From sequence record NC_055781.1: 64,000 nucleotides of DNA. The stretch is one strand, 5' to 3'. A program made the translations under genes and the position numbers. The DNA comes from Escherichia phage p000v. Of the stretch, positions 3,514-44,845 are shown piece by piece. Numbering within the stretch: the first letter of the stretch is position 1; each line of letters begins with the position of its first letter. Under the pieces are notes generated by a model. That model was not told the DNA's origin. It saw only the letters and a list, made by a program, of their open reading frames with translations, and did not search any database.

Positions 3514-3758
3514 TTAGTTTAGACTCAAAGAAAGTTGTTCTAACCCTTAAAGTTAATGACGAGCGACTGGTATTCATTACCATTTCCGATTTACATGTTG
3601 AAATTGCTAATGGCGTCCGTACTTATCAAGCAAATAAAACTCATTGGGATTATATCCCGATGTTGACGCTTACTCAGCGTTTAGAATCAATCGGTCTTAA
3701 AGACCTTTCAGTAAGTGAAGTGAATTTTATCAAACGTGTCGTATCAATCAACCTCTGA
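3510..3758 (+). CDS. hypothetical protein
   Basis: 82-aa ORF, ATGA overlap with upstream gene. Confidence 0.4.
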   Translation: MISLDSKKVVLTLKVNDERLVFITISDLHVEIANGVRTYQANKTHWDYIPMLTLTQRLESIGLKDLSVSEVNFIKRVVSINL

Positions 3759-7153: not shown

Positions 7154-7176
7154 GCTTTATAAACGGATGATAGAAT
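7153..7176 (+). promoter_or_regulatory. MotA-dependent middle promoter upstream of gene 47
   Basis: TGCTTTA MotA box, 11-nt spacer, TAGAAT -10; 24 nt before the ATG at 7200. Confidence 0.55.
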
Positions 7177-26664: not shown

Positions 26665-26715
26665 GTTTACTTCTCCAGTAGTTATGTTATTATAGATCTA
26701 TCAACTACTGGAGAA
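26665..26715 (+). promoter_or_regulatory. early promoter (GTTTAC -17- TATTAT) embedded in a 13-bp perfect inverted repeat
   Basis: TTCTCCAGTAGTT (26671-26683) / AACTACTGGAGAA (26703-26715); -10 in the loop; the right arm contains the GGAGAA RBS of the next gene. Confidence 0.5.
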
Positions 26716-38846: not shown

Positions 38847-38875
38847 GTTTACTTCTCCTCTGGTTTTGATATTAT
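38847..38875 (+). promoter_or_regulatory. early promoter (GTTTAC -17- TATTAT)
   Basis: upstream of ORF 38902. Confidence 0.45.
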
Positions 38876-38901
38876 AACCATATCAACCAGAGGAGAATAA
38901 T

Positions 38902-39426: not shown

Positions 39427-39460
39427 TGTACAACAACTATGGTCTATGATACTATAGACC
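39425..39460 (+). promoter_or_regulatory. early promoter with -10 in hairpin (GGTCTAT-gatact-ATAGACC)
   Basis: TACTAT -10 overlapping a 7-bp inverted repeat. Confidence 0.4.
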
Positions 39461-40728: not shown

Positions 40729-40746
40729 GGGCTTCGGCCCTTTTTG
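40728..40746 (+). terminator. intrinsic terminator (AGGGC-ttcg-GCCCT then TTTTT)
   Basis: UUCG hairpin and T-run upstream of gene 39. Confidence 0.6.
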
Positions 40747-40791
40747 CTTTAGATTTCGGATGATAGAATACCTTCATAACGAGGAGACAAC

Positions 40792-42612
40792 ATGATTAAA
40801 AATGAAATTAAGGTATTGTCGGATGTAGAACATATTAAGAAACGTAGTGGCATGTATATTGGTTCTTCTGCTAAAGAAGCCCACGAGCGTTTTTTGTTTG
40901 GTAAATATCAACAAGTTGAATATGTTCCTGGTCTGGTTAAATTAATCGATGAGATTATTGACAACTCGGTTGATGAAGCTATTCGTACATCATTTAAGTT
41001 TGCAAATAAAATTGATGTGCAAATTAAAAATAATCAAGTTTCGGTGGAAGATAACGGACGTGGTATTCCTCAAGGTTTAGTTACCGACCAAACAGGTGAA
41101 CAAATTCCTGGGCCTGTAGCAGCCTGGACTATTCCAAAGGCCGGTGGTAACTTTGGTGATGACTCTGAACGTAAGACTGGTGGTATGAACGGCGTCGGGA
41201 GTAGTTTAACTAATATCTTCTCTACGTTGTTTACAGGCATCACGTCAGATGGCGAAAATGAAATCACTGTTAACTGTTCAAACGGAATGGAAAACAAATC
41301 ATGGTCTTCTAAGAAATCTAAAGGTAAAGGCACTAAAGTAATCTTCACTCCTGATTTCACTTCATTTGAAGAGCATAATTTATCTCAAATTTATTTAGAT
41401 ATTACTTTAGACCGACTTCAAACATTGGCAGTCGTTTATCCTGATATCAAGTTCACATTTAATGGTAAAAAGGTCGATGGTAATTTTAAACGATTTGCTA
41501 AACAATTTGGTGAAGATAACATCATTCAAGAAAATGATAAAGTCTCTATAGCATTCACAACATCACCAGATGGCTTCCGTCATTTAACTTATGTGAATAA
41601 CATCCATACTAAAAATGGTGGACATCATGTTGAATGTGTAATGGACGATATCTGCGAACATCTTTTGCCGGGTATTAAAAAGAAATATAAGGGTATTGAA
41701 GTCACTAAAGCTCGTGTTAAAGAATGTCTCACAATGTTGATGTTTATTAGAGACATGAGCAACATGCGTTTTGATTCTCAGACTAAAGAACGTTTAACGT
41801 CAACGTACGGTGATATTCGTAATCATATCCAATTAGATGCTAAGAAAATTGCTCAGGCACTTCTTAAAAATGAAGCCTTGATTATGCCTATTGTTGAAGC
41901 AGCATTAGCTCGTAAATTGGCGGCAGAAAAGGCTGCAGAAACTAAAGCAGCTAAAAAGGCAACTAAAGCTAAGGTTCATAAGCATATTAAAGCTAACCAA
42001 TGTGGTAAAGATGCAGATACGACATTGTTTTTAACAGAAGGTGATTCGGCAATTGGATATCTCATTGATGTTCGTGACCGTGAACTACATGGTGGATTCC
42101 CATTACGTGGTAAGGTGATGAATAGCTGGGGTATGTCATATGCTGATATGATGAAGAACAAAGAGCTCTTTGATATCTGTGCTATCACGGGTCTTATTCT
42201 TGGTGAAAAAGCAGAGAATACGAACTATCGTAATATTGCAATTATGACCGATGCCGATCATGACGGCCTTGGAAGTATTTATCCTGCTTTGCTTGCTTTC
42301 TTTAGTAATTGGCCTGAATTGTTTGAACAAGGACGTATTCGCTTTGTTAAAACACCTGTAATTATTGCACAAATTGGCAAAACTCAAAAATGGTTTTATA
42401 CTGTAGCTGAGTATGAAGAAGTTAAAGATACACTGCCTAAGCATAGTATTCGATACATCAAGGGATTGGGCTCACTTCAGCGGGATGAATATAAAGAAAT
42501 GATTCAAAACCCTGTGTACGACGTAGTTAAACTTCCTGAAAATTGGAAAGAACTATTTGAAATGCTCATGGGTAACGACCCTGAACTCCGTAAAGATTGG
42601 ATGCTAGGATAA
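40792..42612 (+). CDS. 39: DNA topoisomerase II large subunit gp39 (GyrB-like), uninterrupted
   Basis: 606 aa; GHKL ATPase region (IDEIIDNSVDEA) and TOPRIM (LFLTEGDSA, IMTDADHDG); no split into 39 and 60. Confidence 0.9.
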   Translation: MIKNEIKVLSDVEHIKKRSGMYIGSSAKEAHERFLFGKYQQVEYVPGLVKLIDEIIDNSVDEAIRTSFKFANKIDVQIKNNQVSVEDNGRGIPQGLVTDQTGEQIPGPVAAWTIPKAGGNFGDDSERKTGGMNGVGSSLTNIFSTLFTGITSDGENEITVNCSNGMENKSWSSKKSKGKGTKVIFTPDFTSFEEHNLSQIYLDITLDRLQTLAVVYPDIKFTFNGKKVDGNFKRFAKQFGEDNIIQENDKVSIAFTTSPDGFRHLTYVNNIHTKNGGHHVECVMDDICEHLLPGIKKKYKGIEVTKARVKECLTMLMFIRDMSNMRFDSQTKERLTSTYGDIRNHIQLDAKKIAQALLKNEALIMPIVEAALARKLAAEKAAETKAAKKATKAKVHKHIKANQCGKDADTTLFLTEGDSAIGYLIDVRDRELHGGFPLRGKVMNSWGMSYADMMKNKELFDICAITGLILGEKAENTNYRNIAIMTDADHDGLGSIYPALLAFFSNWPELFEQGRIRFVKTPVIIAQIGKTQKWFYTVAEYEEVKDTLPKHSIRYIKGLGSLQRDEYKEMIQNPVYDVVKLPENWKELFEMLMGNDPELRKDWMLG

Positions 42613-43409
42613 TGAATTATCGTAAAATTTATGATAAACTTATCGCTGCGGCTAAAAACCGCAGCACTATTCCTAATTATACTGAAACTCACCATATTTT
42701 GCCTAAATCTATGGGTGGGAGTAATGCTAAATCAAATCTAGTTAAAATGACCCCTAGAGAGCATTTTATCGCCCATTTATTGCTTTATAAAATTCATAAG
42801 AACCGTTCTATGCTTATGGCTATTAGAGCTTTTTACATGGGAGCTAGAAATTCTAGAGATTATGATTGGCTTAAACAAGAATTCTCTAAAGAGCACTCTA
42901 GATTTATGAAAGAATGGATTGCTAAAAATGGCAACCCATTTAAAGGTAAAAAACATACTAAAGCAACAAGAGAATTAATGTCACATATTGCTTCACAACG
43001 TATAGGCGAATTAAATCCGTTTTATGGTAAAACTCATACGCAAGAAGCAATAGATAAAATAATACAGGCCAACAAGTTATCTTGGGAGAATGGGCGAAAA
43101 GCACCTGTAAAAACAAAAGAACACCAGGATAAAATAACTAAATCAAGAATGGAAACATTTAAAACAAAAGGATTTAAACCATACACTCCTAGGTCGGAAG
43201 AAACTAAAGCTAAGACTAGAGAGTTGTATAAATCTAAATATGAAAGAAGGCCTATAAGAATCACAAGTGTAAAAACAGGTGAAACTATTGATTTTAACTA
43301 TCTTTATGAATTAAGGGAGTATTTAGGTATAGGGTCTTCTAATATATTGAAAGCATTAAATAATCCTAACAGAACCTGCAAAGGTTATAAAATGTGTTGG
43401 ATGTCCTAA
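42612..43409 (+). CDS. HNH homing endonuclease with NUMOD3 repeats (freestanding mobile gene)
   Basis: HNH motif ETHHILPKSMGGSNAKSNLVKMTPREH; repeats NPFKGKKHTKATRE and NPFYGKTHTQEAIDKI; ATG overlaps gene 39 stop. Confidence 0.8.
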   Translation: MNYRKIYDKLIAAAKNRSTIPNYTETHHILPKSMGGSNAKSNLVKMTPREHFIAHLLLYKIHKNRSMLMAIRAFYMGARNSRDYDWLKQEFSKEHSRFMKEWIAKNGNPFKGKKHTKATRELMSHIASQRIGELNPFYGKTHTQEAIDKIIQANKLSWENGRKAPVKTKEHQDKITKSRMETFKTKGFKPYTPRSEETKAKTRELYKSKYERRPIRITSVKTGETIDFNYLYELREYLGIGSSNILKALNNPNRTCKGYKMCWMS

Positions 43410-43430
43410 GCTCCTTCGGGAGCTTCATTT
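43408..43430 (+). terminator. intrinsic terminator (AAGCTCC-ttcg-GGAGCTT then T-rich)
   Basis: UUCG hairpin right after the HNH gene. Confidence 0.5.
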
Positions 43431-43451: not shown

Positions 43452-44552
43452 ATGAAAGTTATGTTTATCCCATCTCGCGCAGTCCCATTTAACCCAGAAC
43501 GTGTACAAGGTGGTCTTGAAGCAGTACATTTAAATGTATTGAAATATCTTGTGTCCATCGGTGCTGATATTGATTATATCGGCTTTGATAATGACACGTT
43601 TGGTGACTGGAAGGTTAATCATCATCCTGTTGGTCATCTGACTAAATTCAGTCTAGGTATGAGTTATACTATGGCTCGTAAGATTGTTGAACTAGCCGGC
43701 ATCCATGAATACGATTTTGTTGTTACTATGGAACCGACTAAACTAACCGTTCAGGCAATTAAAGACGCAGGTCTCTCTAAAGTTCATAAGAATTTTATGG
43801 CAACACCATTTGAACCGGTATCTCGTGGCATTGTTCAAATTTGGGACCAGACTATTCAAATTCATAAGAATGGTGGTAAGAGTTATGCTCCTACTAAAGC
43901 CTTCCGTGAATTTGAACGCAAATATTGTTATATGACTTCAGGTCTGACTGACAAAATTGATTATGATTATTGGCGAGCAAATCCGTTGTTTGAAGCCGAA
44001 GATTATCCGGTTATTTGTTTGACTGAAAAGCCAGAAGTTCTTCCGGCGACGGATCTGATTATTAGTGCACAACGTTATGACACTAAAATGCGTCGTACTG
44101 ATGTTGCTCTTGAAGCGATTAAAGCACTAGGCGAAAATGGTGCAGGATACTGTCCTAGTAAATGGGCACCACCAGCTAAATATCCTGTTATTATTGATGC
44201 TCCACACAGCGAAATCATGGAACGTCTTAAAACAGCTAAAGCACTTATCAATACGTGTCCTGACACGGGTACGGTAGAGAATAGTTCTATTGAAGCCATC
44301 TCTAAAGGTGTCCCTGTGATTCAGTTAGTTTTTAAGGATTATCCGCACGCGACATTCGAATATGACCCAGATACTGTGCGTGTAGAAATTGATTCCTCTA
44401 CTCCTAAGAAAGAAGTAGTTGCGCTTTACACAAAAGCTGTATTAGAATTCACTGACACATACGAAGCTCGAGTTAAACGTGCTGAAGCAGTATGGAAGAA
44501 GTATAACCGAGATGCAGTTGTTGCGATGTGGGATAAAATCTTCACAGCGTAA
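43452..44552 (+). CDS. GT-B fold glycosyltransferase (GT4-like), candidate DNA hydroxymethylcytosine arabinosyltransferase
   Basis: 366 aa; N-terminal MKVMFIPS...GGLEAVHLNVLKYL and C-terminal TGTVENSSIEAISKGVPVIQ resemble the GT4 E-x7-E/PVI motif. Confidence 0.65.
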   Translation: MKVMFIPSRAVPFNPERVQGGLEAVHLNVLKYLVSIGADIDYIGFDNDTFGDWKVNHHPVGHLTKFSLGMSYTMARKIVELAGIHEYDFVVTMEPTKLTVQAIKDAGLSKVHKNFMATPFEPVSRGIVQIWDQTIQIHKNGGKSYAPTKAFREFERKYCYMTSGLTDKIDYDYWRANPLFEAEDYPVICLTEKPEVLPATDLIISAQRYDTKMRRTDVALEAIKALGENGAGYCPSKWAPPAKYPVIIDAPHSEIMERLKTAKALINTCPDTGTVENSSIEAISKGVPVIQLVFKDYPHATFEYDPDTVRVEIDSSTPKKEVVALYTKAVLEFTDTYEARVKRAEAVWKKYNRDAVVAMWDKIFTA

Positions 44553-44568
44553 ATCCTGAATCGCCTGA

Positions 44569-44619
44569 GGCACTATTACACATAAGATGATAGATTATAT
44601 GGTCTTTAGTAATAGTGCC
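44569..44619 (+). repeat. 11-bp perfect inverted repeat GGCACTATTAC / GTAATAGTGCC with 29-nt AT-rich loop
   Basis: read directly; lies between the glycosyltransferase gene and the small ORF before rIIA. Confidence 0.6.
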
Positions 44620-44644
44620 CTAGGAATCTACTGAAGAGAATATT

Positions 44645-44845
44645 ATGAGAACATATAACGTGGACTTGGAACTTTTTGATAAAGCAGTGCTCCGGGAATT
44701 CCGGCTTATCCAAAGATTTTTTGATATCGAATCAGCAGAGTCCTTTAAAGAACGCTTTAAAGAAATTCGATATAAAATACAAACCGATACAGCTACTAAA
44801 GAAGAACTTCTTGAAGTAGCAGAAATTTTTAAACGTAACTTGTGA
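44645..44845 (+). CDS. hypothetical protein (rIIA.1 position)
   Basis: 66-aa ORF with GAAGAGAATATT RBS. Confidence 0.4.
   Translation: MRTYNVDLELFDKAVLREFRLIQRFFDIESAESFKERFKEIRYKIQTDTATKEELLEVAEIFKRNL

Follow-up and report, generated by a model that had tools for sequence, protein, structure and literature searches.

A PeSL-like Stem-Loop between a Putative Arabinosyltransferase Gene and rIIA.1 of Escherichia Phage p000v

Introduction

The stretch of DNA analyzed here, referred to as the window, comprises 64,000 nucleotides of Escherichia phage p000v (sequence record NC_055781.1; one strand, 5′ to 3′). Within it, a perfect inverted repeat occupies the spacer that precedes rIIA.1. What is this repeat for? 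In the initial annotation it was suggested to be an RNA processing site, a regulator binding site, or a recombination hot spot, and sequence analysis is not able to choose among these roles. Three features were missed at that stage: the −10-like box at the center of the loop, the resemblance to the PeSL cassettes of other T4-type phages, and the presence of rIIA.1 as the downstream neighbor.

Previously, the PeSL cassettes of phages RB49 and phi1 were described as a sigma-70 promoter, an AT-rich upstream region, a stem-loop, and a Shine-Dalgarno sequence with ATG, where the stem-loop is usually found in the interval from the −35 to the −10 box or overlapping the latter (Arbiol 2010, PMC2839356). 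One such stem-loop cut downstream lacZ about as much as rrnB T1, and for PeSL211/210 of RB49 the attenuation of upstream transcription was demonstrated with a lacZ reporter (Arbiol 2010, PMC2839356). The stem-loops of RB49 and phi1 are also the crossover points for mini-circle formation (Arbiol 2010, PMC2839356). PeSLs were subsequently extended to T4/PST and KVP40/nt-1, and MotA-type PmSLs were added; near indels, degraded PeSLs were found in which the stem-loop is intact and the boxes are weak or mis-spaced (Comeau 2014, PMC4122927). A PeSL-type organization does not seem to have been described previously for RB69 or Mosigvirus. The element of p000v is a previously unannotated, and unsurprising, intercistronic PeSL-like stem-loop of T4-type phages.

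Results and Discussion

Genomic Context

The window represents a Mosigvirus (RB69-like, T4-type) and is 98–99% identical to FP43, ATK47, APCEc01, and others. The features of the locus are listed in Table 1. The terminator downstream of gene 39 and the endonuclease ORF has its counterpart in the RB69 terminator at 3649–3662 (Nolan 2006 supplement). The repeat was initially placed between a glycosyltransferase gene and rIIA. The upstream part of this placement stands, with the gene read as the putative arabinosyltransferase gene aat; on the downstream side the adjacent gene is rIIA.1, and rIIA follows it. The protein encoded by RB69 ORF003c has been proposed as an hmC arabinosyltransferase (Thomas et al. 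2018), and the phage records of the BASEL collection annotate the ORF003c homologue as arabinosyltransferase. The description of the genome as otherwise tight does not apply uniformly, since 41 gaps of at least 40 nt are listed on the + strand.

Table 1. Positions of the Features Discussed in the Text (Window Coordinates)
Feature	Position	Strand	Remarks
−10 boxes with straddling hairpins	4425, 10405, 26688, 28001, 38870, 48888, 49400, 49662		
gene 39 (topoisomerase)	40792–42612	+	
NUMOD3 homing-endonuclease ORF, 265 aa	42612–43409		within ~794-bp insertion 42604–43397; missing in RB69
intrinsic terminator, GCTCC-UUCG-GGAGC plus T-run	43408–43425	+	after gene 39 and the endonuclease ORF
aat, RB69 ORF003c homologue, putative hmC arabinosyltransferase	43452–44552	+	stop codon 44550–44552
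spacer with hairpin, 92 nt	44553–44644		between aat and rIIA.1
whole irregular stem-loop, 61 nt	44564–44624	+	MFE/centroid fold
left arm, GGCACTATTAC	44569–44579	+	direct reading and repeat search
29-nt “loop”	44580–44608	+	inner helices 44584–88/44602–06 and 44590–92/44598–600
11-mer, GATGATAGATT	44586–44596	+	exact center of loop; dyad axis 44594
right arm, GTAATAGTGCC	44609–44619	+	direct reading and repeat search
Shine-Dalgarno-like GAAGAG (44633–38) and rIIA.1 ATG (44645–47)	44633–44647	+	outside the hairpin
rIIA.1	44645–44845	+	Pfam T4_RIIA1
rIIA	start 44858		

In the other T4-like genera, the end of gene 39/60 abuts or overlaps rIIA.1, and there is no spacer, no aat, and no hairpin at the locus. 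Homologues of Aat were found in Mosigvirus (at least 95% identity) and otherwise in Acinetobacter phages at 42% identity, where they are encoded near gp40/41. The Acinetobacter homologues are uninformative for the hairpin because their genomic context is different. A search of 5.8 billion proteins with Aat returned one cluster at 99% followed by a drop to 43%. Since at this locus aat and the spacer are limited to Mosigvirus and the flanking genes abut in the other genera, the hairpin is located at the 3′ edge of an insertion that is specific to the genus.

The repeat had also been connected with the mobile endonuclease gene. The endonuclease ORF lies 1.2 kb upstream of the hairpin and is present in 26 of 161 related records. 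This connection is unsupported because the ORF is polymorphic while the hairpin is constant. A segment of 1039 bp with 99.2% identity to the endonuclease region was found in Yersinia phage fPS-90 (Tequatrovirus; L033, 2501–3539). The shared segment contains the endonuclease ORF, the 3′ end of gene 39, the terminator, and ~47 nt from the start of the arabinosyltransferase gene, and it has the appearance of homing between genera in which the flanking sequences were co-converted.

Inverted Repeat and Predicted Fold

The perfect repeat of 11 bp with a 29-nt loop was confirmed by direct reading of the sequence and by a repeat search, and its arms are 100% complementary. The repeat can be extended outward to 16 nt per arm (44564–79, CCTGAGGCACTATTAC; 44609–24, GTAATAGTGCCCTAGG) with one A·C mismatch. 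By itself, a perfect 11-bp repeat whose loop does not exceed 60 nt is not rare in 64 kb. Four perfect inverted repeats with an arm of at least 11 and a loop of 3–60 occur in the window versus 1.25 ± 1.1 in 200 dinucleotide shuffles, and four or more were reached in 7 of these shuffles. All four are intergenic; the intergenic gaps of at least 40 nt sum to ~5 kb, or roughly 8% of the window. No perfect copy of the arm sequence was found elsewhere in the window, and the matches with one mismatch fall inside called ORFs.

The 92-nt spacer folded as the sense RNA gave an energy of −28.5 kcal/mol (z = −4.24), and none of 200 shuffles was as good. The MFE and centroid structures are identical, and the same hairpin is retained when it is folded in a context of 181 nt. 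The predicted stem-loop begins 11 nt past the aat stop codon. At its base is a 4-bp outer helix with one G·U pair, separated by an A·C mismatch from the 11-bp core helix. Above the core, a 4 × 2 internal loop leads to a 5-bp helix with one U·G pair, and beyond a 1 × 1 mismatch a 3-bp helix is capped by a 5-nt apical loop. The folds of the antisense RNA (−23.8 kcal/mol) and of the single-stranded DNA (−11.9 kcal/mol) are weaker. The sense RNA folds best because G·U pairs contribute to the helices that lie beyond the perfect core. The intergenic location of all four repeats, together with the advantage of the spacer fold over its shuffles, indicates that the hairpin is real and non-random. When 44500–44680 is folded, both the MFE and the centroid structure leave the Shine-Dalgarno sequence and AUG of rIIA.1 unpaired or only weakly paired.

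The hairpin was compared with known RNA classes. No tRNA or tmRNA gene was found at the element. A covariance-model search of Rfam 15 gave scores of 14–17 bits against gathering scores of 35–86, with E values of 1–7.6, and there was no family match. An intrinsic terminator resembles the element in having a G+C-containing stem directly downstream of a stop codon, whereas the real terminators of this genome, such as that at 43408–25, have tetraloops and T-runs. The initial judgment that the repeat is not a typical terminator was borne out: there is no T-run 3′ of the repeat (tail sequence CCCTAGGAATCTACTG), and the terminator was rejected for the absence of a U-tract, the 29-nt loop, the tail CCCUAGGAAUCUACUG, and the failure of the terminator scan to call it.

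The polycistronic mRNAs of phages contain RNase III processing hairpins of the T7 R1.1 type. In its predicted fold the element is similarly intercistronic, irregular, and about 60 nt in length, without a U-tract, and an asymmetric internal loop likewise separates its lower stem from its upper one. The approximately 23 bp in four helices with an internal loop would form an interrupted dsRNA that is compatible with the geometry of an RNase III site. It differs from the T7 hairpins in that there is no sequence-family support, with Rfam returning noise only. RNase III is not known to us to process T4-type mRNAs in general.

Sequence Conservation

Conservation in relatives had been named initially as a check on the element, and the element is kept in close relatives. 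A blastn search with a 69-nt hairpin query gave 155 places in 153 phage records, all of which carry the element. The sequence is identical over 69 nt in 50 of the 153 records, and the others differ at 1–5 positions. For the analysis of variants, 22 relatives and 4 metagenome contigs were aligned. The left arm is invariant in all 22 relatives. In the right arm, T44616C of RB69 converts an A-U pair to A·C, and C44618T of ESCO47 converts a G-C pair to G·U. The terminal pair is lost in three phages. Most of the variation within the genus is found in the loop, at 44581, 44593, 44600, 44601, and 44608. The TAnnnT of the −10-like box is kept in all variants, including those with the common G44593A. 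The 20 nt of the 3′ flank (44625–44644) are invariant in the sample.

In AV115 and AV109, an adjacent CT>TC change at 44620–44621 converts the A·C and G·U pairs to A-U and G-C. The result is a perfect 16-bp stem of −35.3 kcal/mol. This change could reflect selection for pairing or, equally, a one-step templated “correction” of the quasi-palindrome. The same change deletes an in-frame TAG, and in these two phages a 5′-extended rIIA.1 is annotated from GTG 44615; the extension is probably an annotation artifact.

No compensatory change was found in the 23 pairs among the 22 relatives and 4 metagenome contigs. Variable sites account for 5 of 46 paired and 5 of 15 unpaired positions, a depletion that is not significant (Fisher p = 0.10; p = 0.72 for the core stem). 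The conservation is weak evidence because all of the relatives are at least 95% identical. A search for distant carriers in IMG/VR gave close relatives only, and a metagenome scan gave the 4 near-identical contigs. The comparative data neither prove nor disprove selection for the structure because the searched collections contain no relatives of intermediate distance.

These comparisons bear on the explanation that the repeat is a functionless quasi-palindrome or junction scar, generated by the insertion of aat or by a template-switch “correction” and retained through the recent divergence of its carriers. The lack of covariation, the lack of significant stem depletion, and the narrow range of carriers are all consistent with a scar, as is the mismatch tolerated in the core by RB69. 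Templated mutation in quasi-palindromes is an established part of T4 rII genetics, and the one-step perfection of the stem in AV115 and AV109 is the type of event expected from it. Against this explanation, an arm of 16 bp, perfect in some genomes, is far beyond chance in a spacer of 92 nt. Beyond the DNA palindrome, the structure also gains G·U pairs and inner helices, which are specific to the sense RNA, and all such repeats of the window are located at regulatory spacers. A scar without function is considered unlikely.

Promoter Analysis of the Loop

The 11-mer at the center of the loop (Table 1) includes an extended −10-like box, TGaTAGATT (44588–96). Exact matches to GATGATAGAWT were found at three positions in the window (7166, 40759, and 44586) versus 0.12 expected, and none of 200 shuffles reached three. 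The match at 7166 is the −10 region of the gene 47 middle promoter, and that at 40759 is the −10 region of the gene 39 middle promoter. At both sites, a terminator and a MotA box are combined with the −10 box, and these composites correspond to Pm:40046 and Pm:5538 of RB69 (Nolan 2006 supplement). The two middle promoters have in common the 13-mer CGGATGATAGAAT (7164–7176 and 40757–40769), which goes beyond the MotA/−10 consensus. Both are preceded by a terminator hairpin and TTTTTGCTTTA, in the manner of a PmSL-like composite.

A matrix for early promoters was constructed from 18 clear early promoters in this window, for which the consensus is GTTTACA, N16–17 usually ending in TGn, TAyTAT, and then AGnCCTATCAA. 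The best score in the spacer is −5.0 versus 9–37 for the leave-one-out members. The TAGATT −10 block scores −8.7 and ranks about 9,800th of 128,000 positions. No early-type promoter scoring above 3.5 was detected between 39650 and 47100. An early promoter in the loop was rejected on the basis of this matrix.

The criterion for a MotA-dependent middle promoter was (a/t)(a/t)(a/t)TGCTT(t/c)A at 11–13 bp upstream of TAnnnT. In the spacer, TAGATT is present at 44591–96 and is preceded by TGa. There is no GCTT within 44553–44590, and the position of the box reads CACTATTAC; the middle promoter was rejected for lack of the GCTT box. The region upstream is CCTGAATCGCCTGAGG and is not AT-rich. The best −35/−10 pair selected by eye, ATTACA-N17-TATGGT, is weak. 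The late promoter sequence TATAAATA is absent from both strands of the spacer. A perfect TATAAT on the minus strand (44600–44595) was rejected since both a −35 element and a TG extension are missing; transcripts from it would be antisense to aat. Nothing was reported in the spacer by a consensus promoter scan, and no early promoter, middle promoter, or terminator was predicted in the equivalent interval of RB69, 2428–2519 (Nolan 2006). On these sequence tests, there is no credible early or middle promoter in the spacer. Going upstream, the nearest recognizable promoters are found at 40745 (the middle promoter of gene 39) and at 39427 (an early promoter). With no promoter nearer than these, the RNA covering aat and rIIA.1 would have to read through the terminator at 43408 and would contain the hairpin.

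Hairpins with an internal promoter sequester the ribosome-binding site in e, soc, 49, and I-TevI of T4 (review PMC3014915). The element is similar to these in that its hairpin would form only in transcripts from upstream and in having a promoter-like box inside. It is unlike them in that the hairpin does not include the Shine-Dalgarno sequence or the AUG, both of which are left unpaired, so that no sequestering is predicted. The internal box, moreover, is no late promoter, and it is doubtful that it serves as a promoter at all.

The same logic underlies the proposal that the hairpin contains an active promoter. Transcripts would be initiated near 44602–44612 from TGaTAGATT or from ATTACA-N17-TATGGT and would not include the left arm. 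The genes rIIA.1 and rIIA would then be expressed from two forms of RNA, a read-through form with the hairpin and a shorter form without it. The proposal draws on the identity of the 11-mer with the −10 regions of two predicted middle promoters, on the position of the −10 box exactly on the dyad axis, and on the retention of TAnnnT by all variants. Each of the three other perfect repeats encloses the −10 box of a promoter, and in the Tequatrovirus fPS-90 the corresponding position before rIIA.1 is occupied by a good early promoter, GTTTAT..TGGTATAAT. The box of p000v, however, fits only 4 of 6 positions, and it has neither a −35 element nor a GCTT box at the required distance. The early matrix scores and the silence of both the consensus scan and the RB69 predictions count further against initiation here. 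Finally, because the right arm does not contain the Shine-Dalgarno sequence, the two forms of RNA would not differ in the way known from these T4 genes. An active promoter is regarded as doubtful, and somewhat more so than a scar.

Comparison with Other Stem-Loops in the Window

The other three perfect repeats of the window (4409/4427, 26671/26705, and 38853/38887) each wrap an early promoter. In all three, the left arm is in the promoter spacer and the right arm is downstream of the −10 box. The right arm has a Shine-Dalgarno sequence, and the left arm an anti-Shine-Dalgarno sequence, in two of the three. The repeats at 38853–38897 and 26671–26715 are perfect over 13 bp; the left arm (TTCTCC...) is inside the spacer of a GTTTACT..TATTAT promoter, and the right arm holds the GGAG Shine-Dalgarno sequence of the next gene. 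Read-through RNAs of these 13-bp repeats would mask the ribosome-binding site and promoter-proximal RNAs would not, as in T4 e, soc, 49, and I-TevI, but here with early promoters. Several early promoters also have in common the repeats TAGGACTA..TAGTCCTA and a conserved AGnCCTATCAA after the −10 box.

Among 27 recognizable early or middle promoters, 8 have a hairpin with z ≤ −3.3 that straddles the −10 box (Table 1). The spacer element is the strongest of the 28 sites compared, with a z of −6.2 (mononucleotide shuffle, 66-nt segment) and 21 pairs straddling the −10-like box.

The element shares four properties with PeSL cassettes: its location, the stem-loop, the downstream Shine-Dalgarno sequence with ATG, and a neighboring indel. 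The spacer is filled from the stop codon of aat, through the hairpin and GAAGAG, to the ATG of rIIA.1. A stable stem-loop straddles a −10-like box. The locus is a site of insertion or replacement of non-core genes, with aat absent from it in the other T4-like genera and the polymorphic endonuclease ORF upstream. Besides these four properties, and as in PeSLs and PmSLs, a block of sequence is common to other promoters of the same genome. What is missing is the sigma-70 early promoter (GTTTAC-like −35 box, N16–17, TAnnnT) with its AT-rich upstream region. The element is also unlike PeSLs and PmSLs in having no MotA box and in its loop of 29 nt versus 7–19 nt in the clear examples of the window. 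Because the four properties are present and the promoter is not, the element was classified as PeSL-like and degraded rather than as a full PeSL.

DNA-Level Explanations

The element could instead operate as DNA, either as the operator of a dimeric protein or as a cruciform or recombination hot spot for the shuffling of cassettes. The two perfect half-sites are 40 bp apart from center to center and flank the −10-like box, an arrangement that would suit an operator. The unique arms and the 155 blastn places in 153 records argue against a dedicated DNA-binding regulator. For recombination, the precedent is the mini-circle crossover at the stem-loops of RB49 and phi1; in addition, the element marks the edge of a lineage-specific insertion, and the four-gamete patterns of the variants, by our own reading, show recombination all around it. 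These signals are not concentrated at the hairpin, however, and the endonuclease ORF is polymorphic independently of the hairpin. The spacer of 29 nt disfavors cruciform extrusion, and the DNA fold amounts to just −11.9 kcal/mol. A role at the level of DNA is rated as improbable.

A repeated or mobile element was rejected on the same uniqueness of the arms and the same blastn result. A replication origin was judged unlikely at the rIIA.1 locus, which we take to be different from the soc/oriA region of the T4 map. T4 oriA has been placed near soc (Kreuzer and Brister review).

Proposed Function

The preferred reading, which is held tentatively and falls short of an even chance, is that the element represents a PeSL-like stem-loop in degraded form, whose role in read-through RNA is that of an attenuator, a 3′-end barrier, or a processing site. 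The spacer would be transcribed within a read-through RNA that extends from gene 39 through aat and rIIA.1 to rIIA, and the polymerase would mostly continue past the hairpin. Acting after initiation, the hairpin would partially attenuate or pause transcription, impede 3′-exonucleases, and/or offer a site to an endonuclease of the RNase III type. Attenuation by a hairpin without a U-tract is suggested by analogy with the PeSLs of RB49. In each case, the hairpin may define and stabilize the end of the aat message and set this message apart from that of rII. The −10-like box in the loop would be a vestige of the cassette promoter or, at most, a weak extended −10 promoter. No transcript map or transcript-end data for Mosigvirus or RB69 were found in the searched literature.

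If the hairpin sets the 3′ end or the stability of the arabinosyltransferase mRNA, it would help to tune the enzyme responsible for the arabinosyl-hmC DNA of the RB69-like phages, a modification that is relevant to the evasion of restriction. The concept of PeSLs as regulatory punctuation and as shuffling joints would then extend to Mosigvirus, beside a genus-defining gene.

A more elaborate possibility, and the least probable of those considered, is a Mosigvirus-specific RNA switch. The intact hairpin would leave the Shine-Dalgarno sequence of rIIA.1 free. Removal of the left arm, through cleavage by RNase III or RNase E or through initiation in the loop, would allow 44603–11 to re-pair with 44629–37 and mask that sequence. 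The alternative helix is predicted to have 9 bp with one G·U pair (44603–44611, UCUUUAGUA; 44629–44637, UACUGAAGA) and would form only in RNA without the left arm. The truncated RNA folds no better than its shuffles (z = 0.42). Such a switch, if true, would couple the processing of the arabinosyltransferase message to the translation of the rII operon.

A further repeat was observed within the coding sequence of rIIA.1. Its 13-nt arms (44720–44732 and 44765–44777) are 92% complementary and are separated by 32 nt. This repeat encloses the MotA box CGCTTTA (44753) of the annotated rIIA middle promoter and overlaps its −10 sequence, TAAAAT.
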